64,000 nt of DNA from Candidatus Woesearchaeota archaeon (GCA_016935985.1 JAFGPW010000002.1:65991-129990); one strand, 5' to 3'. Positions 9,722-50,473 are shown, counted from the stretch's first letter. The notes: generated by a model from the sequence alone, not told the origin. Numbers and translations are program-made.

Positions 9722-10219
9722 ATGGAACTGAAAGAGGCGATGCAAAAGGCCCTCGCGTTCGAGAAGAAGGGCCACGGAATCTATATGGAGGCGGCGAAGG
9801 CGACCGCCAACCCGGTGGTGAATAAGACCTTCACCTACCTCGCCGAGCAGGAGCTGCGGCACGTCGAGGCGATCGAGGACTACCTCAAGACTGGCGATCT
9901 CCACGCCGAGGCGCTCGGCGACGACGAGGAGAGGACTGCGGAGTTCTTCACCATGACGACCGAGGAGTTCAAGGAGCGCACCGCGCTCTCCGCCGACGAC
10001 GTCAAGGCGCACGAGACCGCGCTCCATCTCGAGAAGGAGAGCTACGACTTCTACGCGGAGGCGCTCGCCGACGCGGAGGGGCAGGCGACGAAGGACTTCC
10101 TCGTCTTCCTGATGGAGCAGGAGAACGCGCACTATAAGCTGATATCCCGCGCGTACGAGTACGTCAGCGACCCGGTCTCCTTCCACGCCCAGCACGAGGG
10201 CTGGCTGTTCGAGGGCTGA
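9722..10219 (+). CDS. rubrerythrin-like ferritin-fold protein (no rubredoxin domain)
   Basis: 165 aa; four E..(E)xxH helices (AFEKKGH, EQELRHVE, LHLEKESYDFY, EQENAHYK). Confidence 0.75.
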   Translation: MELKEAMQKALAFEKKGHGIYMEAAKATANPVVNKTFTYLAEQELRHVEAIEDYLKTGDLHAEALGDDEERTAEFFTMTTEEFKERTALSADDVKAHETALHLEKESYDFYAEALADAEGQATKDFLVFLMEQENAHYKLISRAYEYVSDPVSFHAQHEGWLFEG

Positions 10220-38101: not shown

Positions 38102-38152
38102 GGGCGGATCCTTGCGAACCGTTAAATTCCTGTTATACGAGGGTGAGGAGCG

Positions 38153-38596
38153 TTAGCGACGAGAAGTTGGCGTAGGGCGGGTTTCATAAAATTTTTTGAG
38201 AATATCGTCTAATTTATTCCAATCTTCACCAACAACAATAGGTTTCAAGGCAATTAGTTCTTCTCTATAACTTACTTGCTGTGGGATGTCATTCAATAAA
38301 AAAATCGGGATTTTTCTATAAAATGCCAGGCCCATTTCCAAAAAAGAATTTCCACCAATATATCCTGCAATTCCATTTTTATCATAATTTGCAACATAAA
38401 CGGCATGAGACGAGTCAATTTTTTGGATATGTTCATTGATTAAATCGTATTGAATTTTTGCTAATGAATCTTCACCTAAGTGGTGGAAATCTTTCATGCT
38501 TGGCAATAGAACCTCGTGTCCTATTTCTTCGAGAGATTTTTTTATATCCCACAGCTTCTCAAAAAATTTTGCACTTGAACATAATGTAATTTTCAT
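38153..38596 (-). CDS. nucleoside 2-deoxyribosyltransferase-like / SLOG-fold protein (tentative)
   Basis: 147 aa; MKITLCSSAKFF ... AVYVANYDKNGIAGYIGGNSFLEMGLA resembles the PF05014/PF15891 pattern. Confidence 0.4.
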   Translation of the reverse strand: MKITLCSSAKFFEKLWDIKKSLEEIGHEVLLPSMKDFHHLGEDSLAKIQYDLINEHIQKIDSSHAVYVANYDKNGIAGYIGGNSFLEMGLAFYRKIPIFLLNDIPQQVSYREELIALKPIVVGEDWNKLDDILKKFYETRPTPTSRR

Positions 38597-38654
38597 AATT
38601 ATATTGGAATAAGTATTAGTTTAAATATTTAACCCGCCCGAAGCCAATTACGCC

Positions 38655-38732
38655 TAACATCGCGATTAAGAGAAGTTCGGCGTAGCCGAATTTGGACGGA
38701 GCCTGCAAGGCGGAGTCTCTTAATCGCTGTTA
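38655..38732 (+). repeat. structured repeat copy 1 (TAACATCG-arm-AAGTT hairpin AATTTGG-CCTGCAAGG-arm'-CGCTGTTA)
   Basis: 78 bp; arms CGATTAAGAGA / TCTCTTAATCG complementary; internal hairpin TTCGGC-GTA-GCCGAA. Confidence 0.8.
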
Positions 38733-38961
38733 TGTGGTGAGCCTGTAAGGCGAACGAGGGAGCATAGCGACCGACAGTATGACGCAGACAAAAGATTTAG
38801 AAAAATTTTCCTATTAATATTCCAGCCACAATAAGTAAAGCTGCGATTATTAACAGAATAATCAATAGTGAAAATTTTTTTCGTTTTCTAAGTAATTCTC
38901 CTAACATATTTTTAGTTTATTGATTAGAATATATAAATCTTTTGTCGAGTAATATTGCACA

Positions 38962-39043
38962 TAACATCGGGATTTACCGAAGTTCGCGAAGCGAATTTGG
39001 ACGAAGAAACCTGCAAGGTTTCGTAGTCGGTAAATCGCTGTTA
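38962..39043 (+). repeat. structured repeat copy 2
   Basis: 82 bp; arms GGATTTACCG / CGGTAAATCG (compensatory relative to copy 1); hairpins TTCGC-GAA-GCGAA and GAAACC-TGCAA-GGTTTC. Confidence 0.8.
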
Positions 39044-39123
39044 GTTGCGTCACAAAGTGACCGAGGGATAGTGCAACGATTTTTCACGAAGTGAAAAAAT
39101 CCCGAAGAGTTGAGAAAAGAAAT

Positions 39124-39381
39124 CTAATGTTGTGTTTTAAAGAAATAAGCACTTGCAATACCAAATCCAATTGTTAAAATCCATAAGATTATTGTAACTG
39201 TGCCAGAGCCACCTAGAGGAGACATTAATGCGGCAAAACCAAGAATAAATGTAATAATTGCTAGCACAATTGCCAATGCTCTATGTCCCATAAAACTCCA
39301 AAATGTCATATTACAATATAGATATTGGATTTGGTTTATAAATTTTTCGTCAAGATTTCTTTTTTCAATTGCAACTAACAT
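39124..39381 (-). CDS. small membrane protein (2-3 TM)
   Basis: 85 aa; island codon usage; sits between repeat copies 2 and 3. Confidence 0.4.
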   Translation of the reverse strand: MLVAIEKRNLDEKFINQIQYLYCNMTFWSFMGHRALAIVLAIITFILGFAALMSPLGGSGTVTIILWILTIGFGIASAYFFKTQH

Positions 39382-39451
39382 CGCGATTAAAAAAAGTTCG
39401 CGAAGCGAATTTGGGAAAATCCTGCAAGGATTTTCTTTTTAATCGCTGTTA
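39376..39451 (+). repeat. structured repeat copy 3
   Basis: 76 bp; arms CGATTAAAAA / TTTTTAATCG; hairpins TTCGC-GAA-GCGAA and AAAATCC-TGCAA-GGATTTT. Confidence 0.8.
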
Positions 39452-39546
39452 TACGCCCCGAACAAAATCTTTGATTTTGTGAGAGCCTGCAAGGCGTGGT
39501 CGAGGAGTTTTGAAAAAACTCCGAAGAAGTCGTAAGAGATGCCGTC

Positions 39547-40029
39547 CTATTTGATTAATGAACCCATAACATCTTGGAAAAAAACACTTTCTCCTCTATA
39601 AAGAATTCTCTCTTGTCCTTTGAAATAACTATAATCGCCTTCCATTTCAAAGGTGTATCTAAAATCTCCATCAGAGAATTCTTTAGGTCCTCGAAAAGGC
39701 ACACTATCATCAAAATTCATTAGAGCTTTTTTTAGAAATGGAAATGCTTGTTCTTGGAAAAAAGCGTCATCGAATTTTGGATTATGTTGTCCTTGATATG
39801 CCATGCACCAAATAGGATTTCCTTGGAAGAAAACAACTTCTCTTCCTGGTGCCCATTGGCTTCCTGCATAAGAATCGTGATATCTTAAATCTCCTTCTAC
39901 AAATTCATAATCTTTATGACCTTCTTGAGTGGGCACCTCACACCTATGTTGTTTTCTGACTTCTTTTGGTGCGGCATAAGTATGTCTGTGTGCCTTTGCG
40001 ATAAAATCTAAAAGTGTTTTTTTCTCCAT
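39547..40029 (-). CDS. hypothetical aromatic-rich protein (possibly DUF5680-like)
   Basis: 160 aa. Confidence 0.4.
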   Translation of the reverse strand: MEKKTLLDFIAKAHRHTYAAPKEVRKQHRCEVPTQEGHKDYEFVEGDLRYHDSYAGSQWAPGREVVFFQGNPIWCMAYQGQHNPKFDDAFFQEQAFPFLKKALMNFDDSVPFRGPKEFSDGDFRYTFEMEGDYSYFKGQERILYRGESVFFQDVMGSLIK

Positions 40030-40094
40030 AAATTTAGTAAAATTGGTGAATTAATAAAGCTTTCTTTCGTGTAGGCATCTCTTACGATTGCGTA

Positions 40095-40240
40095 TAACAT
40101 CGCGATTTAAAGAAGTTCAATTCTGACCTCGAGACTCGCCTTGCAGAGGCTCGAGCTGGAAGAATTGAATTTGGGTAAATTTCGGGAAATCGCTTGGCGA
40201 TTTAGCGTAAGCGACCGAAATTTCCTTTAAATCGCTGTTA
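40095..40240 (+). repeat. structured repeat copy 4 (expanded, 146 bp)
   Basis: Arms CGATTTAAAG / CTTTAAATCG; hairpin stem changed to TTCAATTC ... GAATTGAA; extra internal insert. Confidence 0.75.
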
Positions 40241-40385
40241 TATTCTTTGACCCTACGAGTGAAACGGAGTGGGGTCAAATTTCGTCCGAAAAGTCACGAG
40301 AACGCCGTCTTCAAGGGCGAAGCCCTATCTAACATTAACTTAAAGGGAAAGGAAACTTAAATATTGTTTTTTCTATAGAGTAGTA

Positions 40386-40880
40386 ATGTGCGAAAGATTT
40401 AAATATCTTATATTTATTCTATTCTGTATGGACAACATAAATGATAGATGTTATCAAAGTGATTTATCAACATCAGGATTTGATCAAGCAGATGCATTAG
40501 CAATTAATTTTCTAATGGCACAAGGACTGTTTCTAAGAGGTAGGGGTTATACTCCTGCTGAAACAGGTATATATTTAGACGGAAAAAGATTTATTATTGC
40601 AAGAATGGTTGGAAAATCATCACATTTTGGAGCAGGGGGACAATCGCTTGGACTTCCCGATGAAAGAACTGCAAATCCTGAAGATTATGCCGCATTTCTG
40701 GAAATGCTGATGGGCGGAGATGTTAATAAAGCAACTGTTATTACTTCTAGTAAGGATGTAACAGACCAATTACTAAAAGCAGAAGGTTTAACATCCATTA
40801 TTGGTAAACCAGATGGTGCGGTTCCATACATTGAAGCAAAATATTCTGGAAAACAAATTGACATTATTACTGGTCGTTAG
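40386..40880 (+). CDS. hypothetical protein
   Basis: 164 aa, island codon usage. Confidence 0.4.
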   Translation: MCERFKYLIFILFCMDNINDRCYQSDLSTSGFDQADALAINFLMAQGLFLRGRGYTPAETGIYLDGKRFIIARMVGKSSHFGAGGQSLGLPDERTANPEDYAAFLEMLMGGDVNKATVITSSKDVTDQLLKAEGLTSIIGKPDGAVPYIEAKYSGKQIDIITGR

Positions 40881-40924
40881 TTTCCTTTCCCTTTCTAGAA
40901 ATTGGGCGTTCTCGTGATTGAATA

Positions 40925-41009
40925 TAACATCGGGCTTAAGGGAAGTTTTTTGCGTAGCAAAAAATTTGGGAGAGCGAAGTGCAACGAGCGAACCCTTTAA
41001 GCCCTGTTA
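40925..41009 (+). repeat. structured repeat copy 5
   Basis: Arms GGCTTAAGGG / CCCTTTAAGCC; hairpin TTTTTTGC-GTA-GCAAAAAA. Confidence 0.75.
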
Positions 41010-41145
41010 AATCCGCCGACGAACGAAGTGAGGAGAGTGCAACGTGCCCGAGCGGAATGAAATGGAGCGAAGGAGTCGCCAGCAGTATATTTTGTTTTTA
41101 GGGGGTCAGCGCAAATTTTTTGCTTCTTTTTTTGAAAAAAGAAGA

Positions 41146-41733
41146 TTATTGATTTTCCATAATTTCTTGTATGTCCAAATCTAAGTGTCTAAGCAATCTA
41201 GATTCAGAAACTTTTTCTAATCCTCTTTTGATAAGTTCTTGTGCTTCAGAATATTGTTTTCTATAAATATGATGGATTGCCCCCATATAATACGGGCGAT
41301 CCAAATCAGGATTAAGATTTATTGCTTCTTCCAAACTAGATTCTGCACCTTGAAAGTCTCCTAATTTAAACTGAACAGATGAATAATTAGTAAGAACCAT
41401 AGGTCTTCCTGCCCAATCTTCAGGTGCTTCTTCTAAACAGCACCTAAAAAAATAATTCGCTCCTGCAGGTTCGTTTGCTTCAAGGGTCATAGATCCCAAA
41501 TAAAAATTTGCCCAAAAATCATCAACATGATTAATATGGGATTTGATGAAACATCCATATGCTTCAGGATACATCCCTCTCTGAAGAAATATAGCTCCAG
41601 TACCAGTTAAACGAGTAATTCTATCGGCATAAGTTTTTGGATTACTCTCATCAAGATATTCATTTTTCATTTGAACACTCGCTACAAGATGCTTTGCCAA
41701 TATGTCTGTAAGCTTATCTTTTCCCATAATCAA
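41146..41733 (-). CDS. TPR-repeat protein
   Basis: 195 aa; several 34-aa helical repeats (W/LG/Y/A/F/A/P pattern). Confidence 0.55.
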   Translation of the reverse strand: MIMGKDKLTDILAKHLVASVQMKNEYLDESNPKTYADRITRLTGTGAIFLQRGMYPEAYGCFIKSHINHVDDFWANFYLGSMTLEANEPAGANYFFRCCLEEAPEDWAGRPMVLTNYSSVQFKLGDFQGAESSLEEAINLNPDLDRPYYMGAIHHIYRKQYSEAQELIKRGLEKVSESRLLRHLDLDIQEIMENQ

Positions 41734-41814
41734 ATGGTAACGGTTGTTACTATATAAGTATTACTCCCCCCCAATTAGGGAAAAATATATAAATATATAG
41801 GATATTCCATATAT

Positions 41815-42552
41815 ATGATAAAGGAATCGTTAGAAAAAATAGGCTTAACATCCGGAGAAGCTGAAGTATATGAAGCACTGGTTAGCTTAGGCTTATCATC
41901 TACTGGTGCAATTACAAAAAAAGCAGGAATTGCCAGTTCTAAAGTATATGAGGTTCTTCAGAGATTACAAAAAAAAGGTCTTGTTAGTTTTGTGATAAAA
42001 AATGGAGTACAATATTATGATGCAACACCTCCTGAACGATTGCTTGATTTTCTTGAAGAAAAAAAAGAAGATGTAGTAAGGGCTCAAGAAGACATCAAGA
42101 AAATTATTCCTACAATAAAGCAACTTGGAGAGAAAGCAGACGAACATAATGAAACAGTAGTTTATACAGGTATTGAAGGTGCAAAGATTGTTCTTAAGGA
42201 GATATTAGAAGCAGGAAAGAAAGGAATATCTAATTATGGATTCGGGACAAATGTTGATCCTTATGTGGAACAATTGCCTCATGCTCTTAATAATTATATT
42301 CAAGAGGCAAAAAAACTAAAGTTTAAAACAAGATTAATTTTTGCTAAAGGATTCAAATCTTCAAATATAACAGCAGAAATTAGATTTCTCTCAACGGAAT
42401 ATTTACCTCCTGTTAGAACAATGATTTATGGACATAAAGTTGCGATAGTTGATTTCACAAAGCCAGTTACAACAATTATTATTCATAAAAGAGAAATTGC
42501 GGAATCATATAAAAAACACTTTGAACAATTATGGAAAATCGCAAAAAAATAA
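41815..42552 (+). CDS. TrmB family transcriptional regulator
   Basis: N-terminal HTH LTSGEAEVYEALVSLGLSSTGAITKKAGIASSKVYEVLQRLQKKGLV; 245 aa. Confidence 0.8.
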   Translation: MIKESLEKIGLTSGEAEVYEALVSLGLSSTGAITKKAGIASSKVYEVLQRLQKKGLVSFVIKNGVQYYDATPPERLLDFLEEKKEDVVRAQEDIKKIIPTIKQLGEKADEHNETVVYTGIEGAKIVLKEILEAGKKGISNYGFGTNVDPYVEQLPHALNNYIQEAKKLKFKTRLIFAKGFKSSNITAEIRFLSTEYLPPVRTMIYGHKVAIVDFTKPVTTIIIHKREIAESYKKHFEQLWKIAKK

Positions 42553-42639
42553 ATCTCTGAAACGAAGTTTCAGACTATCTGTTTTCTGAAAGAAAACCGC
42601 GCTGACCCCCTTTCTATAAATAATGCTGGTGATTGGATT

Positions 42640-42749
42640 TAACATCGGGCTTAAGGGAAGTTTTTTCCGCAGGAAAAAATTTGGGAGAGAAACGAATTTT
42701 GCTTGGCAAAATAGCGAAGCGGTCGTTTCGAACCCTTTAAGCCCTGTTA
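42640..42749 (+). repeat. structured repeat copy 6
   Basis: Same arms as copy 5; hairpin TTTTTTCC-GCA-GGAAAAAA (compensatory GC to CC/GG change relative to copy 5). Confidence 0.75.
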
Positions 42750-42815
42750 AATACGTTTTCCGTTACGAGCGAAGCGGAGTTCGGAAAACCTGCGTCCGCA
42801 GAGTAAAATTTCCAT

Positions 42816-42862
42816 TTAAAAATAAATTCGACCACAGGGAGTGTATATGTGCGAAGCACTGG
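42816..42862 (+). repeat. direct repeat DR-A (TTAAAAATAAATT-N15-TATATGTGCGAAGCACTGG)
   Basis: 37/47 identical to DR-B at 49492-49537. Followed by three GGGGAGTTCC 10-mers at 42861, 42916, 42967 and a ~55 bp degenerate tandem repeat x3. Confidence 0.7.
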
Positions 42863-43038
42863 GGAGTTCCGTTCCTTAGAAAGAGCGAATGCGACACATC
42901 AAGAACAAGTATCTAGGGGAGTTCTTTTTTCATCAAAGCCGAAGGCTCATCAAGTAAAAACATCTAGGGGGAGTTCCGTTCAATACAAGCGAACAAAGTG
43001 AGCCATCAAGAACAAGGTTATAGGGGCGAGAAAACCAA

Positions 43039-43073
43039 AACATTTATTAACATTTGATAACATTTGTGATAAT
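43039..43073 (+). promoter_or_regulatory. three 10-bp-phased iterons AACATTT(A/G)NN upstream of the RHH gene (candidate operator)
   Basis: AACATTTATT AACATTTGAT AACATTTGTG, 12-45 nt upstream of the ATG. Confidence 0.4.
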
Positions 43074-43084
43074 AGGGGGTAGCT

Positions 43085-43222
43085 ATGAAACCAAAAAACG
43101 TTACACTACACTTAAATTCAGATTTGTACGAGAAATATAAAGAATTTTGCAAGAGAAAAGGCTGGCTTGTATCTAGACAAGTTGAGCTTATGATGGAAAA
43201 GCAGATGAAGGGAGACATATAA
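43085..43222 (+). CDS. ribbon-helix-helix (CopG/Arc-like) small DNA-binding protein, 45 aa
   Basis: Not in the track. MKPKNVTLHLNSDLYEKYKEFCKRKGWLVSRQVELMMEKQM is a beta-strand then helix-helix pattern. Stops 1 nt before the next gene. Confidence 0.5.
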   Translation: MKPKNVTLHLNSDLYEKYKEFCKRKGWLVSRQVELMMEKQMKGDI

Positions 43223-43223
43223 A

Positions 43224-43961
43224 ATGGTATCATTCAAACTTGCAGCTATAAAAATTCTGAGAGAAGCAAAAGAACCTTTGCACTATGAAGAGATCACTAA
43301 AAGGGCATTAGAGAATAACATGATTGAGACTTCTGGAGCTACACCTGAATCAACCATGAATGCTCAGATTGCTGTTGACATTAAATCAAAGAAAGGAGAA
43401 TCTCCTTTTGTACGGGTTAAACCTGGTTATTTCGGACTAAATCCTAATTTTACTGAAAAGGAAGAGAAAGAAGAAGAAAAAGAAGAAGAAGTAAAAGAAG
43501 CAGAAATTCAAGAGAATATAAGCACACAATACGTAGGTAAAGCAGGAGAGCATCGGGTTGTCAGTGAGTTATTATTCAGAGGATTTAATGCAAGTATTAT
43601 GGGTGTTGATGAAGGGATTGATATTGTTGCTACAAAAGAAAGAAGTCTCTATAATATACAAGTAAAAACCTCAAACGAGAACAAATTCAATTATTATGTT
43701 TTTGATTTGCGTATAAGCAGTTTTGAGAAATATAATAGAAATAATACTTTCTATGTATTTGTTCTTAAAGGAGAAAAGGTTAATTTTCTCATATTACCTT
43801 ACTTTGAAATTCAGAAAAATGTTGATCAAAAAAATATTCTTGTTGTAAATAAAAGTACACGATATCGAATTAACATTAGGATACGTGATGGAAAATTGTA
43901 TTTAGGAAATAAGGAGAATGAAATGTCATACTTTATGAATAATTGGGAGTTAGTTAAATGA
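43224..43961 (+). CDS. HARE-HTH + PD-(D/E)xK (Mrr-like) restriction endonuclease-like protein
   Basis: N-terminal AAIKILREAKEPLHYEEITKRALENNMIETSGATPESTMNAQIAVDIK (HARE-HTH). C-terminal EHRVVSELLF ... GVDEGIDIVATKE ... IQVKTS nuclease core. Confidence 0.6.
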   Translation: MVSFKLAAIKILREAKEPLHYEEITKRALENNMIETSGATPESTMNAQIAVDIKSKKGESPFVRVKPGYFGLNPNFTEKEEKEEEKEEEVKEAEIQENISTQYVGKAGEHRVVSELLFRGFNASIMGVDEGIDIVATKERSLYNIQVKTSNENKFNYYVFDLRISSFEKYNRNNTFYVFVLKGEKVNFLILPYFEIQKNVDQKNILVVNKSTRYRINIRIRDGKLYLGNKENEMSYFMNNWELVK

Positions 43962-44605
43962 ATCAGACAAAATCAAGGCAAAGAGTTATTGATCATGGAG
44001 AAGTCTTTACCCATGAAAGAGAAGTAAATGGAATGCTTGATCTTGTTAAAAATGAAACTGAAAGATTAGATTCTCGATTTTTAGAGCCTGCGTGTGGAAC
44101 GGGTAATTTCTTAATTGAAGTATTGAACAGAAAACTCATGGTTCTTAAGAAAAAATATAGTCGTAGTCAACCAGAATATGAAAAATATGGTATAGTTGTT
44201 GTTTCAAGCTTATATGGTATTGATTTACTTGAAGACAACGTACAGGAATGTAGGCAAAGATTAATTGACACATTGGAAAAAGAATATACCTCTATTTTCA
44301 AACATAAATTTAATCAAAAGTATGTAGAAGTTTTAAGGTTCATCTTAAGCAAGAATATTGTCTCAGGAGATGCGCTGACAATGAAAAATACTAAAGGAAA
44401 GCCACTCATTTTTTCTGAATGGTCAATGCCTTATAATGATTCTAAAATTAAAAGGAAAGAATATTCATTTAAGGATATATTTAGCCCCACTCTTTTATGG
44501 AGTTTTACTACTGATAGCGATACAGGAGAAAGAGTAATATTACCCAACGTATATAAGGATCATCCCCTCATGAACTATATGGAGTTAGTAAACAAAAATG
44601 GATGA
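43958..44605 (+). CDS. truncated gamma-class N6-adenine MTase paralog (motif X + canonical motif I, no NPPY)
   Basis: GEVFTHEREVNGMLDLV ... LEPACGTGNFLIEVL; 215 aa. Confidence 0.55.
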   Translation: MNQTKSRQRVIDHGEVFTHEREVNGMLDLVKNETERLDSRFLEPACGTGNFLIEVLNRKLMVLKKKYSRSQPEYEKYGIVVVSSLYGIDLLEDNVQECRQRLIDTLEKEYTSIFKHKFNQKYVEVLRFILSKNIVSGDALTMKNTKGKPLIFSEWSMPYNDSKIKRKEYSFKDIFSPTLLWSFTTDSDTGERVILPNVYKDHPLMNYMELVNKNG

Positions 44606-45068
44606 AGAATTTGACATAGAAGGTGTAATTTATCCGGTGCCTTACGATTTAGCTATGAATATTTTTAAAAAAAATAAAAAAATTTTTGTTAAATATTTGA
44701 CACACGAGCCTACAAAAAAAACAGTAGTTCGTCTTAAGAAAGGGATGAAGTTGTATATCTATTCTTCACAATCCAAAAAGGTTATTCTCGGTGAAGGAGT
44801 TATTGATGAAATATCTTTTTTGAACAGATCAGAAATCTTATCAAAATTTGATGACGAGCTATTCATTTCGGAGTCAGAGTTAAGGGACTACTCGAAGGGG
44901 AGAGAAAGTAAGAAGGCCCAAGTGTTAAAAATTAAGAATATTGTTCTGTATCCCAAAGGGAAGATTGTTAAAAGAGCAATAACTATGACCGGTATATATG
45001 TAACTGGACAAAATAAAAAAAGCATTTTTGGGAATCAGAAAAACATCAATGGAGTTAACAAAAAATGA
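44598..45068 (+). CDS. PUA/ASCH-like beta-barrel domain protein (tentative)
   Basis: 156 aa; MKLYIYSSQSKKVILGEGVIDEISFL; embedded in the RM operon with 8-nt and 4-nt overlaps. Confidence 0.35.
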   Translation: MDEEFDIEGVIYPVPYDLAMNIFKKNKKIFVKYLTHEPTKKTVVRLKKGMKLYIYSSQSKKVILGEGVIDEISFLNRSEILSKFDDELFISESELRDYSKGRESKKAQVLKIKNIVLYPKGKIVKRAITMTGIYVTGQNKKSIFGNQKNINGVNKK

Positions 45069-46621
45069 ATAAAACGGATTACAATCCAGATATATTAAGT
45101 TGTCTAGCAAGTTTAAGCAACGATGAAGTATTTACACCTCCTAAAATAGTTAATGAAATGCTAGATTTGTTACCTCCCGAATTATGGAAAGATAAGAATG
45201 CAAGATTTTTAGATCCTGTGTCTAAAACAGGGATTTATCTGAGAGAGATAGCAAAGAGACTAATGAAAGGTTTGGAAAAACAGATTCCCAATAGGCAAAA
45301 AAGGGTAAATCATATCCTTACCAATCAACTTTATGGGGTAGCAATAACAGAGTTAACATCCTATGTCTCTAGGAGATCATTGTATTGTTCAAAAACTGCT
45401 AATGGAAACTACTCTGTTTCTACAGAGTTCAAGAATAAAGAAGGGAATATAAGATTCAAAAATATTAATCACGAGTGGGTAAATGGAGGCTGCATATTTT
45501 GCGGTGCAAGTAAGGAAGTTTATGATCGTGGAGACGAAATGGAGTCACACGCTTATGAGTTTATCCATACAGAAAAACCGGAGGAGATATTCAAAATGAA
45601 ATTCGATGTAATTTTAGGAAATCCACCTTATCAGTTAAGTGATGAGGGTCACGGAAGAAGTGCTAGACCTGTTTATCATAAGTTTGTTCAACAAGCGAAA
45701 AAACTAAACCCTCGGTTTTTGACAATGATCATACCTGCACGCTGGTATGCAGGAGGAAAGGGACTTGATGAATTCAGGTCAGAGATGTTGAATGATAAAC
45801 GAATTCGCAACCTTGTCGATTTTGAAAATTCACGTGATGTTTTTCCTGGTGTTGATGTGGCAGGAGGAATATGTTATTTTTTATGGGATAGAGATAATAA
45901 AGGATCATGTGAGATAAAGAGTTTATACAACGGAGCAGAGGTAAAATCTGTAAGAGCTTTGGACGAATTTTCAATTTTTGTAAGACAAGGTCAAGCAATA
46001 CCAATTATTAGAAAAATAGAAGCAGTAAAAGAAAATAATGGAAAACGACTGAGTGATGTTGTATCCTCAAGAAAACCATTTGGATTACCAACAAATTATG
46101 AACCCAAAGAGAAAGGAGTGCCTTGCTGGTTTATTCAGAGGGTAGGATTGAAATATGCTGATAAACGAGATATAATGGATCCTAATAAATTATTAAACAA
46201 ATGGAAATTTCTAGTACCCAAAGCACCTATCGCTGGTCAGACTGATTTTTCTAAACCTGTAGGATTTTATTATGATGGAAATACTAAAATTGCAAAACCA
46301 GGTGAATGTTGTACTGAATCATTTATCGTTGCTGGAGCATTTAATACAGAGGAAGAAGTAATTTCTTTCAAATCTTATTTATTTACCAAAATTGTGAGGT
46401 TCTTAATACTTCAGACAGTTATTTCGCAAGATGTAACGAAAAATAACTTTTCTTTCGTACCTGATTTAGGTAAATATAAAGGAAAATACACTGACGAATT
46501 ATTGAGGAAACGTTGGAATATAACTGATAGTGAATGGAACTATATTGATTCAAGAATAAGATCAGTTGATTCTATAAATAATAAAAATCACTATGAGGAA
46601 ATCCCTGATGACGATGAATAA
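45065..46621 (+). CDS. gamma-class N6-adenine DNA methyltransferase with C-terminal target-recognition region (Eco57I/TaqI-like M)
   Basis: Motif X DEVFTPPKIVNEMLDLL, degenerate motif I LDPVSKTGIYL, motif IV ILGNPPYQ, Cys-containing insert (GGCIFCG), ~330-aa C-terminal TRD. Confidence 0.8.
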   Translation: MNKTDYNPDILSCLASLSNDEVFTPPKIVNEMLDLLPPELWKDKNARFLDPVSKTGIYLREIAKRLMKGLEKQIPNRQKRVNHILTNQLYGVAITELTSYVSRRSLYCSKTANGNYSVSTEFKNKEGNIRFKNINHEWVNGGCIFCGASKEVYDRGDEMESHAYEFIHTEKPEEIFKMKFDVILGNPPYQLSDEGHGRSARPVYHKFVQQAKKLNPRFLTMIIPARWYAGGKGLDEFRSEMLNDKRIRNLVDFENSRDVFPGVDVAGGICYFLWDRDNKGSCEIKSLYNGAEVKSVRALDEFSIFVRQGQAIPIIRKIEAVKENNGKRLSDVVSSRKPFGLPTNYEPKEKGVPCWFIQRVGLKYADKRDIMDPNKLLNKWKFLVPKAPIAGQTDFSKPVGFYYDGNTKIAKPGECCTESFIVAGAFNTEEEVISFKSYLFTKIVRFLILQTVISQDVTKNNFSFVPDLGKYKGKYTDELLRKRWNITDSEWNYIDSRIRSVDSINNKNHYEEIPDDDE

Positions 46622-49133
46622 AAACTTTTTTCCGAAGAAGCCTGATGTAAGTCCACTTATTTATGCTTATGAACTTGAAGGTGTTGAAACGCATAAAGGA
46701 CTATTAAAAGTAGGATATACTACGCGGACATCTAAAGATAGGGTAAAGGAGCAATTAAAAACTAGTCGTGTAAAGTATAAAATAGTATTTGAAGAATCTG
46801 CCATGAGAAAAGACGGCACTTATTTTGATGATCACGCAGTCCATAAACTTTTGCTCAAGAAAGGAATTAAGCGAAAAAGTGGAGAATGGTTTGCTTGTTC
46901 TATTAAGGAAGTAAAAGCTGTCGTTTTAGCCTTGAAAACAGGAATAATAAATGAAGATAATAGGACATTGAATTTCAAAATGAGGCCTGAACAAGCTGAG
47001 GCAGTAAAAAGAGCGTCTCATTATTTTTCTAGTTTTAAAGAAGAGAAAAAAACACCTCATTTCCTTTGGAATTGTAAGATGAGATTTGGTAAAACTTTTG
47101 CGGCTTATCAATTAGCAAAAAAAATGGGATGGAAAAGGATTCTTGTGCTAACATTTAAACCTGCGGTTGAAAGTGCTTGGGAAGATGACTTATTAAATCA
47201 TGTTGATTTTGAGGGATGGCAATTTTATTCTAGACATTCAGATATAAATTCAAGCAAATTGAAAAAAAAGAAACCTATAGTTTGTTTTGGTTCTTTTCAG
47301 GATTATTTAGGTAAAGATTCTCTTGGTAGGATTAAGACAAAAAATGAATGGGTTCATAAAATTAAATGGGATTGTATTATCTTTGATGAGTATCATTTTG
47401 GTGCGTGGAGGGAATCAGCAAAAAGCCTATTTGACGAGGAAAATGAGATTCTTGTTGAGCAGAAAGAATATGAAGAAGAGATGGTTCAAGGTCCTGAAGA
47501 GCAAGATAAAATTGATTATTTAGAAAGTGCGATGCCTATAAAGACAAGATTATATCTTTATTTATCTGGGACTCCATTTAGAGCAATAATTTCAGGAGAA
47601 TTTATAGAAGAACAAATTTATCATTGGACTTATTCCGATGAGCAAAGAGCCAAAGAAAATTGGAAAAAAGCTAAGAATCCTTATGAGTCTTTACCTAGGA
47701 TAGTATTGCTAACCTATCAATTACCAGATTCAATAATAAACATTGCGAGCGGAGGAGAATTTGATACTTTTGATCTAAATGTCTTTTTTTCTGCTAAAGG
47801 TGAAGGCAAAGATGCAAAATTTGTATATGAAGACGATGTCCAAAAATGGCTTGATTTGATTCGAGGCAACTATTTAGCGTCAAATTTGGATAATTTAAAA
47901 CTGGGTGCTAAAAAACCCCCTCTTCCTTATTCCGATGTTAGATTATTGAATATATTATCTCACACACTTTGGTTTTTGCCGCATGTTAATTCATGCCATG
48001 CTATGGATAATTTATTGATGCAGAAGCAAAATAAATACTATCACTATTACAATATTGTAGTCGCAGCAGGTGCAACAGCAGGAATAGGACTAGATGCTCT
48101 CAAACCTGTACAAAAGGCAATGGAAGAGCCATTAAAAAGTAAATCGATTACCTTAACATGTGGAAAACTAACTACTGGAGTTACTGTAAGACCTTGGGCA
48201 GGTATTTTCATGCTTAGAAATCTAAAAAGCCCAGAAACATATTTTCAAGCAGCATTTAGAGTTCAATCCCCTTGGACTGTAAAAAATCCAGATGGAAAAA
48301 CTCCTAACTCTGAAGAAATCATAAAGAGAGAATGTTACATTTTTGACTTTGCTCCAAATAGAGCATTAAAACAGATTGCAGACTACAGTTGTAATCTTGA
48401 TATTGATGAAACAGATTCTGAGAAGAAAATTAAGGAGTTTATTGATTTTCTGCCCGTGTTAGCTTTCGATGGAAGTCGTATGGAAGTATTAGATGCTGGT
48501 AAAATTATTGAAATGGCAATGAGCGGAACTACTGCTTCACTTTTGGCAAGACGGTGGGAAAGTGCTCTACTCGTTAATGTTGATAACCACACTTTAAGTA
48601 AAATTCTGAATAATCCAAAAGCCCTAGAAGCTCTAATGAGTATTGAAGGTTTTAGAAGTTTGAATAGTGATATTGAGCTTATTATAAACAAGTCAGAATC
48701 GGTCAAAAAGACTAAGCAAAAATTAGCAAATGAAGAAGATATTCCACCTAAGCTAAAGAAAAAACTGACTGAAGAAGAAAAGGAATATATGAGTAAAAGG
48801 AAGGAGATTCAGAAGAAATTAATCAAATTTGCAACAAGGATACCTATTTTTATGTATTTAACAGATTACAGGGAAAGAACATTGAAAGATATAATAACAA
48901 AATTAGAACCTGGTTTGTTCAAAAAAGTTACAGGATTAAAGGTTGAAGATTTTGAGTTATTAGTAAGCCTAGGAGTATTCAATAGTAATTTGATGAATGA
49001 TGCAGTATTCAAGTTCAAGAGATATGAAGAAGCAAGTTTGTCGTACACAGGAATATATAAACATAAAGTCGAACAAGTGGGGGGATATGACATAGTTGTG
49101 ACTGCTGAAGAATTCACTGAAAAGGTAAAATGA
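46608..49133 (+). CDS. T5orf172 (GIY-YIG superfamily) nuclease - SF2 (ResIII-like, DExH) helicase fusion; restriction/effector subunit
   Basis: N-terminus LIYAYELEGVETHKGLLKVGYTTRTSKDRVKEQ ... GEWF. Helicase motifs FGKTFAAYQ (I), CIIFDEYHFG (II), LSGTPF (III), QAAFRVQSPW (VI). Start at an internal Met (ATGA overlap with the MTase). Confidence 0.8.
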   Translation: MTMNKNFFPKKPDVSPLIYAYELEGVETHKGLLKVGYTTRTSKDRVKEQLKTSRVKYKIVFEESAMRKDGTYFDDHAVHKLLLKKGIKRKSGEWFACSIKEVKAVVLALKTGIINEDNRTLNFKMRPEQAEAVKRASHYFSSFKEEKKTPHFLWNCKMRFGKTFAAYQLAKKMGWKRILVLTFKPAVESAWEDDLLNHVDFEGWQFYSRHSDINSSKLKKKKPIVCFGSFQDYLGKDSLGRIKTKNEWVHKIKWDCIIFDEYHFGAWRESAKSLFDEENEILVEQKEYEEEMVQGPEEQDKIDYLESAMPIKTRLYLYLSGTPFRAIISGEFIEEQIYHWTYSDEQRAKENWKKAKNPYESLPRIVLLTYQLPDSIINIASGGEFDTFDLNVFFSAKGEGKDAKFVYEDDVQKWLDLIRGNYLASNLDNLKLGAKKPPLPYSDVRLLNILSHTLWFLPHVNSCHAMDNLLMQKQNKYYHYYNIVVAAGATAGIGLDALKPVQKAMEEPLKSKSITLTCGKLTTGVTVRPWAGIFMLRNLKSPETYFQAAFRVQSPWTVKNPDGKTPNSEEIIKRECYIFDFAPNRALKQIADYSCNLDIDETDSEKKIKEFIDFLPVLAFDGSRMEVLDAGKIIEMAMSGTTASLLARRWESALLVNVDNHTLSKILNNPKALEALMSIEGFRSLNSDIELIINKSESVKKTKQKLANEEDIPPKLKKKLTEEEKEYMSKRKEIQKKLIKFATRIPIFMYLTDYRERTLKDIITKLEPGLFKKVTGLKVEDFELLVSLGVFNSNLMNDAVFKFKRYEEASLSYTGIYKHKVEQVGGYDIVVTAEEFTEKVK

Positions 49134-49384
49134 TTGGCAAGCTTCTTGATCCTAAGGCTATAATCGGAACTATCTCGTTTGTTTTTATCATGGTTGTTCT
49201 TTTTATGATGCTTGACGGAATACAAGATAGTCCTTTAGCTGAGAACGAACAGGCAAATAAGACTATTCAAGAAACGAAAGAATCTTTATCTATCTTGACT
49301 AATGGTTATTTTCTTGCTGGAAGCATAGCAAGTGCAATAGCATTGATAGGCTTCTTCATCTGGTTATATCATAGATACAGTTAG
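49130..49384 (+). CDS. small membrane protein (2 TM), last gene of the RM-like operon
   Basis: 84 aa; start overlaps the helicase stop (ATGA). Confidence 0.5.
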   Translation: MIGKLLDPKAIIGTISFVFIMVVLFMMLDGIQDSPLAENEQANKTIQETKESLSILTNGYFLAGSIASAIALIGFFIWLYHRYS

Positions 49385-49491
49385 TTTTCTCGTCCCCTTC
49401 TAAAAAATATGAATTTTCGAGCAACAAAGTTGCGAGCGTAGATGTCCGTCAGGACTAAGGAACTCCCCCCTTAAATTAAAGAACTCCCCTA

Positions 49492-49537
49492 TTAAAAATA
49501 AATTTCTCCGAAGGAGACTATATGTGCGTAGCACTGG
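49492..49537 (+). repeat. direct repeat DR-B (TTAAAAATAAATT-N14-TATATGTGCGTAGCACTGG)
   Basis: Flanked by three GGAACTCCCC 10-mers (49459, 49480, 49536) that are the inverse of those next to DR-A. Confidence 0.7.
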
Positions 49538-49651
49538 AACTCCCCAACTTTACCGTCAAAGAAATGGAAATTTTATTGTATTTAACACGTATTAAGCGTA
49601 CTTTTTCGCGCCGAACAGGGATTTCCGGCGTCTTCACGAAAAGGCGTATAA

Positions 49652-50473
49652 ATGCCCGCTGTCCCCCGTGTCCGGATGGGGTATGAGAGGATTGTGACAG
49701 ACGAGTGCAGGTTCAGGGGCTATTCGCCGAGGACGATAAAGGCATACCTGCATCACGTCAAGAGGTTCGTGGCGTCCGGGATGCCGCCGAGGGAGTACCT
49801 CCTCATGCTCATCGGGAACGGCGCCTCTGACGAGACGGTGAGGTCCGCGGGCTTCGCCGTCAGGTTCTATCTCGCGGCTGCGGGGAAGGGCCGCCCGGAG
49901 GCCGGAACGGTCCTTGCCGCCCTGCCGAACGTCAAGCGCGGGAAGAGGCTTCCGGTGATACTCTCCAAGGAGGAGGTGGGGCGGCTGGTATCGGCCTCCA
50001 GCAACGCCAACCACCGGCTGATCATGCAGGTAGGTTATTCTGCCGGCCTGCGGGTCAGCGAGATAGTGAACCTCCGCTGGCAGGACGTCGATCTCGGCAG
50101 GGACGTGATCCATGTGAAGCGCGCCAAAGGGAAGAAGGACCGGATCGTCATGCTCTCTTCGAAAGTCAAGGAAGGCCTGCTGGGCCTCGCGCCTGGCAGG
50201 GAAGGGCCTGTCTTCCTCACGAACAGGGGCGGAAGGTACTCACCAAGGACGATACAGAAGATCATAGCGGATGCGGCAGCGAAGGCAGGCATACGGAAGA
50301 GGATAACCCCGCACACCCTGCGGCATTCCTTCGCGACGCATCTCCTGGAGAACGGGACAGACCTGCGGCACATCAGGGACCTGCTGGGACATTCTGACCT
50401 GCGCACGACCATGGTCTATACGAACGTGTCGAACAGGACCATCCGCGGCATCAGGAGCCCGCTGGACGACTGA
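49652..50473 (+). CDS. tyrosine site-specific recombinase (XerC/XerD/XerA-like)
   Basis: R..HTLRHSFATHLLENGTDLRHIRDLLGHSDLRTTMVYTNV catalytic box II with Tyr; C-terminal IRSPLD; host-like high GC; no IntI-specific insertion. Confidence 0.85.
   Translation: MPAVPRVRMGYERIVTDECRFRGYSPRTIKAYLHHVKRFVASGMPPREYLLMLIGNGASDETVRSAGFAVRFYLAAAGKGRPEAGTVLAALPNVKRGKRLPVILSKEEVGRLVSASSNANHRLIMQVGYSAGLRVSEIVNLRWQDVDLGRDVIHVKRAKGKKDRIVMLSSKVKEGLLGLAPGREGPVFLTNRGGRYSPRTIQKIIADAAAKAGIRKRITPHTLRHSFATHLLENGTDLRHIRDLLGHSDLRTTMVYTNVSNRTIRGIRSPLDD

Follow-up and report, generated by a model that had tools for sequence, protein, structure and literature searches.

We analyzed a 64,000-nucleotide stretch of a Candidatus Woesearchaeota contig (GCA_016935985.1 JAFGPW010000002.1:65991-129990; this entire stretch is referred to below as the window), in which seven genes form an operon at positions 43085-49384. 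Three of these genes, here termed M1, M2, and R, encode what we regard with good confidence as a restriction-modification (R-M) system of the DrdVI family, carried by a 6.8-kb operon that is as a whole one mobile cassette and whose remaining genes are accessory. By homology, this core joins a named family that is already catalogued yet barely studied. An initial annotation had described an R-M-like operon that was neither textbook Type I nor textbook Type III, and this description held against the features that define those classes. Its further proposal of a non-canonical, uncatalogued architecture did not, since M1, M2, and R together correspond to the DrdVI family of REBASE.

All seven genes of the initial annotation were present as co-oriented open reading frames (ORFs) on the plus strand, and neighboring genes were either 1 nt apart or overlapped by 4-29 nt. 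Because of this spacing, we read them as a single tightly packed transcription unit. The first encodes a 45-aa ribbon-helix-helix (RHH; Arc/CopG-like) protein (43085-43222), which matched an Arc-like repressor, lacks an NCBI annotation, and is a candidate controller of the operon. It is followed by a locus-specific accessory gene for a 245-aa protein, predicted by Pfam and motif alignment to combine a HARE-HTH domain with a PD-(D/E)xK nuclease (43224-43961), and by M1, a small subunit of 215 aa with a methyltransferase (MTase) fold (43958-44605). A 156-aa DUF365/ASCH-like protein of the PUA superfamily (PF04033; 44598-45068) lies between M1 and M2, the latter being an Eco57I-family, gamma-class N6-adenine MTase of 518 aa (45065-46621). 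R, a T5orf172/GIY-YIG nuclease joined to a superfamily 2 (SF2) translocase, comprises 846 aa in the longest ORF (46593-49133), which starts at 46593; NCBI places the start at 46614, the probable one. The last gene encodes a locus-specific protein of 84 aa with two transmembrane (2-TM) segments (49130-49384), members of whose cluster occurred in other Woesearchaeota contigs. The NCBI locus tags of the region are JXB02_01690-01735.

The family assignment rests on a plasmid, pDrdVI of Deinococcus wulumuqiensis NEB 479, which we recovered by searching plasmids with tblastn. An M1-M2-R triad comprised the sole annotated R-M-like genes on the 12 kb of pDrdVI that were retrieved. DrdVI is filed by REBASE as Type IIG, and REBASE/NEB papers call it a "split methylase". 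When cloned in E. coli, M1-2.DrdVI produced N6-methyladenine (m6A) at GCAGCC (PMC6430315), and for DrdVI, which has a GIY-YIG domain, the wording "a fused translocase and REase" (restriction endonuclease) has been used (PMC4996451). A second relative, M1-2.MaeIV from Methanococcus aeolicus, produces m6A at GCACY (REBASE/NEB papers). Our literature search found no published mechanism for the DrdVI family. Additionally, the PADLOC model REase_MTase_IIG PDLC03626 (1359 positions) was matched both by M2 (at 861-1315, 4e-40) and by R (at 151-677, 4e-31), and because one model matches both proteins, a fused M2+R version is already present in REBASE-derived libraries.

M1 aligned with M1.DrdVI at 44% identity (E 8e-49). 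It keeps the canonical S-adenosylmethionine (SAM) loop LEPACGTGNFL (FLEPACGTGNFL), and the position of the catalytic NPPY tetrapeptide instead reads FSEWS, which is itself conserved. The initial annotation had listed M1 as a 215-aa fragment of a gamma-class MTase with a SAM motif and no NPPY; the motif content was borne out, the term fragment was not. Because its homologs in 65 loci are 42-84% identical (50-84% in four aligned examples) and are placed before M2 across loci, M1 is a conserved subunit rather than a decayed relic. It is probably a truncated paralogue of the N-terminal half of M2, catalytically dead and retaining SAM binding; M2 and M1.DrdVI shared 36% identity across 55 aa, and a 33-nt DNA repeat spans the motif I regions of M1 and M2.

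M2 matched the Pfam family Eco57I (PF07669) at 2.3e-39, with weak matches to MmeI_Mtase, and was 43% identical to M2.DrdVI (E 3e-155). Its motifs X (FTPP), I (FLDPVSKTG), and IV (GNPPYQ) were accompanied by an H/C/C/H insert that is invariant among homologs and by a variable C-terminal target recognition domain (TRD) at approximately residues 341-518 (46085-46621). Motifs in the order X-I-IV and a TRD at the C-terminus assign M2 to the gamma class by sequence, in agreement with the earlier call of a full gamma-class N6-adenine MTase with its own TRD and a Cys insert. Across loci, the catalytic part of M2 stays conserved and the TRD varies. The window TRD was just 31% identical to that of DrdVI, and for this reason the window system probably recognizes a motif other than that of DrdVI. 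The TRD was 64-67% identical to those of bacterial loci L021, L023, L029, L039, L041, and L065 of our survey (below), and the bacteria with window-like TRDs belonged to Thermodesulfobacteriota, Hydrogenedentota, Kryptoniota, and Anaerolineales. In the closest archaeal systems, the TRD was ~30% identical to that of the window, although R was 85% identical. This proximity to bacterial loci, together with the distance from the archaeal systems with the closest R, suggests that the TRD has been exchanged across domains of life.

R matched Pfam T5orf172 (5.2e-9, about residues 20-115) and ResIII (2.6e-6), followed by a helical C-terminal region at about residues 660-846, and was 55% identical to the DrdVI R protein over its full length (residues 16-839). 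The GIY-YIG-type residues Y24, Y26, R50, and E98, as well as GEWF, GKT, DEYH, SGT, and QxxR, were invariant in 53 homologs of 67-85% identity. The initial reading of the 846-aa protein as an N-terminal T5orf172 nuclease followed by an SF2/ResIII helicase was thus upheld, including against the contrary possibility of an ordinary Type III Res, as Pfam gave no match to a C-terminal nuclease in R. Foldseek searches with the AlphaFold 2 model of R returned Snf2-type remodellers, HsdR of EcoR124I, XPB, and SauUSI, all with low TM-scores. The assignment of a helicase subfamily from these searches was dropped, the matches being generic SF2 translocases.

Proteins related to R are numerous, with 4057 representative clusters at E <= 0.001 in a library clustered at 50% identity. 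The 120 best matches were 67-100% identical, headed by the source contig's own protein, and came from Woesearchaeota, Patescibacteria, Bacteroidota, and Ignavibacteria. We surveyed 87 loci by tblastn and counted gene order in those 52 distinct loci for which 2.7 kb or more of upstream sequence was available. The order M1-M2-R on one strand was found in 50 of the 52, across many bacterial and archaeal phyla, and the triad also occurred on plasmids and has spread by horizontal transfer. The window presents the same co-oriented order, with the DUF365 gene interposed between M1 and M2. Single-chain T5orf172-ResIII-Eco57I fusions of 1193-1464 aa also exist, and on a Bacillus cereus plasmid a small, separate MTase-like gene lies ahead of such a fusion. 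In the window, R and M2 are separate ORFs and not the single polypeptide with nuclease and MTase that defines Type IIG strictly. The initial exclusion of Type IIG is correct in that strict sense and fails in the broader one, given the filing of DrdVI in REBASE and the fit of the PADLOC IIG model.

The second part of our reading concerns the DNA in which the operon is embedded, a mobile context that was absent from the initial annotation, where an island of low GC carries attC-like repeats and adjoins a recombinase gene. The island spans 11.4 kb (about 38150-49600) with 32-39% GC inside a contig of 58-68% GC (about 62%), and is flanked on the left by the threonyl-tRNA synthetase (ThrRS) gene and on the right by a tyrosine recombinase gene of host-like GC. 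Searches for RNA genes in the island (Rfam, E <= 0.1; ARAGORN) found none; its GC-richer patches are attC-like sites. Specifically, we identified imperfect palindromes at six positions (~38650-38737, 38957-39048, 39371-39456, 40090-40245, 40920-41014, and 42635-42754), each measuring about 90-155 nt. All fold as long hairpins (z -2.5 to -5.7) that end in nnnnnTAAC/GTTAnnnnn boxes, and in all of them a bulge of constant size (2 nt) is accompanied by a second stem of 11 bp. This L-box stem had six different sequences among ten sites from the window and related contigs, and paired at 10-11 of 11 positions through compensatory changes. A regular-expression scan for attC recovered three of the six sites and was not relied on. 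The last site, attC#6 (42635-42754; DNA fold -29.1 kcal/mol, z -5.1), bounds the R-M cassette and comprises a left box (GGATTTAAC), the 2-nt bulge, the 11-bp L stem, a branched loop, and a right box (GTTAAATAC; 42746-42754).

The left box of each site matched the reverse complement of the preceding site's right box at 9, 9, 9, 9, and 8 of 9 positions, whereas the two boxes inside a single attC matched at just 6-8 of 9. Such complementarity across cassettes, as judged from the sequences, is a hallmark of integron cassettes. At the right end of the island, the recombinase start is preceded at a distance of 65 bp by an attI-like core (GTATTTAAC; 49578-49586) lying within a conserved site (ATTGTATTTAACACGTATTAAGCGTAC), and this core, read as its reverse complement, matched the right box of attC#6 at 9 of 9 positions. 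Because GTTAAATAC pairs 9/9 with GTATTTAAC, we read the whole operon as one cassette of 6.8 kb (42747-49586). The direction of the array was set by the conserved resident site beside the recombinase; extra-helical bases gave conflicting signals. An alternative description of the island as an integrative mobile element exploiting Xer (IMEX) inserted at dif was judged less likely, as the integron model better fits the hairpin sites and box complementarity; in Thermococcales, dif does not adjoin xerA (PMC2958812).

The remaining cassettes (38153-42552) encode a 147-aa protein with a weak resemblance to Nuc_deoxyrib_tr (nucleoside 2-deoxyribosyltransferase), two small membrane ORFs, a DUF5680 protein (160 aa), a 164-aa protein of no assigned family, and, sharing one cassette, a tetratricopeptide repeat (TPR) protein and a TrmB regulator whose genes are divergently arranged. 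The left end of the island carries the right arm alone of an attC (38115-38140), 13 nt beyond the stop codon of ThrRS. Eighteen nt of this half-site (AACCGTTAAATTCCTGTT) were identical to an attC arm of L099, a contig with a homologous recombinase gene that is described below, and its box matched that of the neighboring cassette at 6 of 9 positions.

The recombinase (49652-50473, plus strand; 58-68% GC) is XerA-like according to NCBIfam and PDB matches. Its best NCBIfam model was archaeal XerA (5e-58, below the model cut-off), and the integron-integrase model TIGR02249 gave a match that was split in two pieces and likewise below cut-off. The best PDB match, XerA of P. abyssi (4a8e), aligned over the full length, whereas IntI4 of V. 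cholerae (2a3v) aligned in parts. Owing to this split match and these alignments, we conclude from sequence comparison that the enzyme is without the IntI-specific insertion. Homologs of 58-69% identity are annotated in metagenome-assembled genomes of Woesearchaeota and Nanoarchaeia; on their contigs, housekeeping genes follow the Xer-like gene, and contig ends or low-GC DNA precede it. Contigs L096, L097, L098, and L100 stop 120-1050 bp ahead of the gene, as expected of assemblies that break at a variable array rich in repeats. The GC content of the window's gene contrasts with the 29-36% of its homologs in other Woesearchaeota. A recombinase of host-like GC beside a 32-39% GC island in a contig of ~62%, set against these homologs, suggests that a high-GC host acquired the cassettes from relatives of low GC.

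The resident site also recurs. The sequence ATTGnnTTTAAC-A(T/C)(C/G)-TATTAA(A/G)CGTA was conserved upstream of homologous recombinase genes, and in several contigs from Woesearchaeota and metagenomes (window; L096-L100, L103, L107, L118, and L120) the attI-like site preceded the gene by 65-150 bp. A metagenome scan for the conserved site returned 23 loci, ~10 of them with the extended site. An Xer-like gene was located 95-130 bp downstream in seven of these ~10, and in four extended-site loci an attC-like site lay 1.3-1.9 kb upstream with a right box fully complementary to the attI 9-mer of the same locus. Toxin-antitoxin-like genes were among the contents of the small cassettes in these metagenome contigs. 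Moreover, contig L099 (2690-10798) carried a complete Type I R-M operon (hsdM/S/R) of ~7 kb as the first cassette beside the Xer-like gene, bounded at 2825 by the right box of an attC (GTTCTATTC) and at 9873 by an attI-like box (GAATAGAAC) that matched at 9 of 9 positions. The integron-like layout with an adjacent Xer-like recombinase recurs in other archaeal contigs.

According to Ghaly et al. 2022, archaeal attC arrays are mostly clusters of attC sites lacking integron-integrases (CALINs), and the six IntIs that they reported all have the IntI domain. Our literature search found no report tying attC arrays to XerA-type enzymes. Tentatively, and with somewhat less than even confidence, we propose that Woesearchaeota run an integron-like capture platform, in which a XerA-type recombinase without the IntI domain joins attC-like hairpins to a site upstream of its own gene, takes up multi-gene defence operons as single cassettes, and moves them between lineages ~30 GC points apart. 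If true, such a platform would explain why archaeal attC arrays are mostly seen as integrase-less CALINs.

With respect to the four genes outside the triad, the initial annotation described modification-sensing proteins that coexist with the modification-generating ones. A stronger form of this view, namely that all seven genes make up one integrated, novel defence system in which modification readers work with the methylase and the GIY-YIG-helicase, draws on the arrangement of the genes, which are co-oriented and 1 nt apart or overlapping, and on a few relatives. The domain calls themselves were sound. The 245-aa protein combines HARE-HTH (4.6e-19) with PDDEXK_5 (1.2e-5) and, weakly, Mrr_cat_2 (0.0098), as annotated for a HARE-HTH protein fused to an Mrr-like PD-(D/E)xK nuclease, and its predicted active site, E109...D129/D133...Q146-V-K148, was invariant in 25 homologs. 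The 156-aa protein, annotated as PUA/ASCH-like, matched DUF365 (2.8e-10), the archaeal structure 2kku (7e-9), and ZmASCH of Zymomonas (5guq; E 0.006), along with a weak match to the PADLOC candidate PDC-M11B that also favors an integrated system. The annotated RHH regulator with phased iterons was confirmed as to the iterons (below); the 45-aa protein itself matched an Arc-like repressor weakly (E 0.017). The 84-aa 2-TM protein was present as described.

The distribution of these genes points the other way. Three of the seven are conserved, and the 50 loci with the common order hold M1-M2-R only; the others were absent from nearly all loci. Homologs of the HARE-HTH nuclease and the 2-TM protein were found in none of the 87 loci by tblastn, DUF365 homologs in two (Nanoarchaeota L010 and L019, where they adjoin M1 on its upstream side), and an RHH homolog in one (L012, directly upstream of M1, 41% identical, scoring 2.3e-6). 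The HARE-HTH nuclease family is well conserved (714 matches) and lives apart, its members being alone or among unrelated Type II MTase/REase genes or housekeeping genes. Furthermore, the equivalent intergenic slots elsewhere hold unrelated cargo. More than 300 bp separate M2 from R in 28 of the 50 triad loci, and this gap contained KilA-N (L003), a YhcG/DUF1016 nuclease (L029), or an AAA_21 ATPase (L073); a DarT-macro fusion was located between M1 and M2 in L038. HARE-HTH proteins with a different C-terminal part lay between M2 and R in L023 (called by Pfam) and L039 (called by its near-identical N-terminal sequence), both of which carry the TRD class of the window (65-66% identity, versus ~30% in the closest archaeal relatives), a coincidence that speaks for integration. 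Among L003, L023, L029, L038, L039, L063, and L073, a 948-aa cargo protein was read by eye as PHP + ATPase.

Given their absence from nearly all related loci and the unrelated cargo in the same slots elsewhere, the genes for the HARE-HTH nuclease, the DUF365/ASCH protein, and the 2-TM protein are in our reading accessory genes or hitch-hikers. A machine that couples sensing to generating components is not supported as a system, and we consider a single system of all seven genes unlikely. The recurrence of HARE-HTH and ASCH-like genes in a few relatives leaves room for a modulatory role, and makes it possible that an arrangement of sensing and generating components is a local accessory feature.

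Upstream of the RHH gene, three AACATTT repeats with 10-bp phasing (43039-43065, plus strand; starts at 43039, 43049, and 43059) lie over a TATA-like box (TTTATTAA), 26-46 bp ahead of the start codon. Together, the repeats and TTTATTAA form a candidate operator/promoter of the operon. A direct repeat of 47 bp lies at both ends of the operon, with copy A at 42816-42862 and copy B, 81% identical, at 49492-49537, both on the plus strand. Copy A comprises an A/T-rich TATA-like box, GGAG, and then ATG TGC GAA GCA CTG; the consensus, ATG TGC GWA GCA CTG, provides the start of a mini-ORF at both operon ends, and an ORF of 54 codons starts in copy B and reads across the attI-like site. L099 also contained the core of the repeat (TATATGTGCGAAGCACTG). 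Additionally, three GGGGAGTTC motifs are located upstream of the operon on the plus strand (42861-42976; starts at 42861, 42916, and 42968) and three, inverted, downstream on the minus strand (49460-49545; at 49460, 49481, and 49537). Six copies occur in the window, where 0.73 are expected, and all six flank the operon. These arrays were rejected as a feature of the DrdVI module, being absent at DrdVI-like loci elsewhere; an analogous inverted pair of G-rich GGGGGGAATTCC motifs flanks the Type I cassette of L099. The very stable mini-hairpin motif d(GCGAAGC)/GCGTAGC recurs in the variable loops of the attC sites (38640-42760) and in the 47-bp repeat (42850 and 49525).

Homology to DrdVI, intact motifs, a variable TRD, and methylation by two relatives allow a mechanism to be proposed for the DrdVI-like core. 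M2 would be the catalytic, sequence-reading m6A subunit with its own C-terminal TRD, and M1 would complete or regulate the methylase, the two being co-expressed as a "split methylase" in characterized relatives; M1-M2 would then place m6A on a short asymmetric motif of 5-6 bp. R would be recruited via M2 at unmodified sites, translocate on double-stranded DNA using ATP, and cut with its GIY-YIG-type domain. RHH and the 10-bp-phased repeats probably control expression of the operon after transfer, and the operon was probably captured from a low-GC donor at the attI-like site beside the XerA-like recombinase in its host, a high-GC Woesearchaeota. ATP-driven translocation and cleavage, as well as the roles of M1, of RHH as a controller, and of the accessory genes, are steps that we infer. 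By analogy, the system is most likely functionally like Type ISP, Type I, and Type III enzymes, despite the "IIG" label in REBASE.

Several points weigh against a DrdVI-family restriction system moving as one cassette. The AlphaFold 2 model of R had a mean predicted local distance difference test (pLDDT) score of 61 and a predicted TM-score (pTM) of 0.49, with confidence just for the T5orf172 domain (pLDDT 81-90) and RecA1, and the fold matches fit an SF2 translocase of double-stranded DNA and nothing finer. Searches with R and M2 against all PDB sequences (phmmer and profile searches) returned nothing relevant, Type ISP included, and the literature yielded no cleavage biochemistry for any DrdVI-family member, MaeIV included. 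The tight overlap of the seven genes could mean that the accessory genes are functionally integrated here. An operon of 32% GC in a 62% GC host makes expression there uncertain, and the source contig is metagenome-assembled. Finally, the component-wise similar DnmA-YeeB-YeeC set of B. subtilis showed no restriction or anti-phage activity (PMC9973331).

This last observation, that neither dnmA nor yeeB nor yeeC had an effect on phage or transformation in B. subtilis (PMC9973331), and the lack of cleavage results for DrdVI or MaeIV in the literature would also suit an epigenetic or "relic" module, in which M1-M2 methylate and the helicase-nuclease no longer restricts. Such a loss of function is improbable in view of the nuclease and helicase motifs, all of which were invariant in the 53 homologs of R, of TRD turnover around a conserved catalytic core, which is typical of active R-M systems, and of the wide spread of the family by horizontal transfer and on plasmids; moreover, Vibrio homologs of DnmA/YeeB protected against phage (cited in PMC9973331). 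That the low-GC island is instead an assembly chimera, with the operon derived from another, low-GC organism, is very improbable: metagenomic assembly, the abrupt GC jump at both island ends, the repeat-type sequence at both junctions, and a left end of half an attC only speak for it, but two independent mis-joins would have to be assumed, the boxes at the right junction (9/9) mark it as a genuine product of attI x attC recombination at a site conserved upstream of homologous recombinase genes in other contigs, a milder GC asymmetry of the same kind exists in L099, and the left half-site, so close to the ThrRS stop, has no partner sequence to seed a mis-join.

Once assigned to the DrdVI family, a puzzling operon becomes open to testing. 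With >4000 clusters at 50% identity, this family is very large; it is distributed over bacteria and archaea, and we found neither a solved structure nor a mechanism for it. By analogy with Type ISP enzymes, it probably represents their GIY-YIG counterpart. A conserved M1 with a SAM pocket and without the catalytic tetrapeptide is a question in its own right. The cassette/Xer context may matter more than the R-M core, in that a complete defence operon would move as an integron-type cassette in archaea. We consider this context the most novel lead, an operon as a giant cassette beside an Xer-type recombinase being less expected, and an Xer-type recombinase as its likely engine bears on the origin of integron integrases from Xer recombinases.

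Compared with known systems, the core is closest in composition to DrdVI and MaeIV, with which it shares three proteins in the same order, an R that joins GIY-YIG/T5orf172 to a translocase, and an Eco57I-type M2 with a C-terminal TRD. The window differs from both in having DUF365/ASCH between M1 and M2, RHH and the HARE-HTH nuclease upstream, and the 2-TM gene downstream, and from DrdVI in its archaeal host and its integron-type cassette instead of a plasmid. DnmA(YeeA)-YeeB-YeeC of B. subtilis and Vibrio crassostreae, likened here by domain content, combines the same activities, namely a gamma-class m6A MTase with a TRD, an SF2 helicase, and T5orf172/GIY-YIG. There, however, helicase and T5orf172 are separate and the MTase is one long MmeI-type chain without M1, whereas in the window T5orf172 is fused to the helicase and an Eco57I-type MTase is accompanied by M1. 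Sets of the DnmA-YeeB-YeeC type were reportedly predicted by Morgan et al. in 2009 to form a helicase-dependent R-M system.

The Type ISP enzymes LlaGI and LlaBIII follow the same logic of nuclease, SF2 translocase, gamma-class MTase, and TRD, in an order that is identical in the fused relatives of the window system. They are single chains with an Mrr-type PD-(D/E)xK nuclease, in contrast to the window, where R and M2 are split, M1 is added, and the nuclease is of the GIY-YIG/T5orf172 type. The PDB searches detected no sequence similarity of the window proteins to solved Type ISP chains, and a kinship of R or M2 with Type ISP, HsdR, or Res by sequence is accordingly not claimed; by analogy of architecture, cleavage is likely coupled to translocation, as in Type ISP. 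Type III systems such as EcoP15I likewise encode Mod and Res in separate genes, with Res containing an SF2 ATPase (ResIII), yet their Mod is beta-class with a central TRD and their Res has a C-terminal PD-(D/E)xK nuclease, unlike the gamma class, C-terminal TRD, N-terminal GIY-YIG, and extra M1 of the window. Type I is set apart from the window system by three features: we found no Methylase_S match, the TRD is within M2, and the nuclease is T5orf172, not PD-(D/E)xK.

Finally, the array resembles integrons, both those of bacteria and those that Ghaly et al. 2022 described in archaea, in its folded sites with RYYYAAC/GTTRRRY-type boxes separating the cassettes, in cassette starts complementary to their own inverse core, in a simple site beside a tyrosine recombinase, and in its toxin-antitoxin and R-M cargo. 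The attC and attI sites of the window have the features expected of an integron and the recombinase is without the IntI-specific domain, being XerA-like instead; the first cassette measures 6.8 kb and holds seven genes, and the cassettes lie about 25-30 GC points below their host, unlike those of the usual integrons compared.

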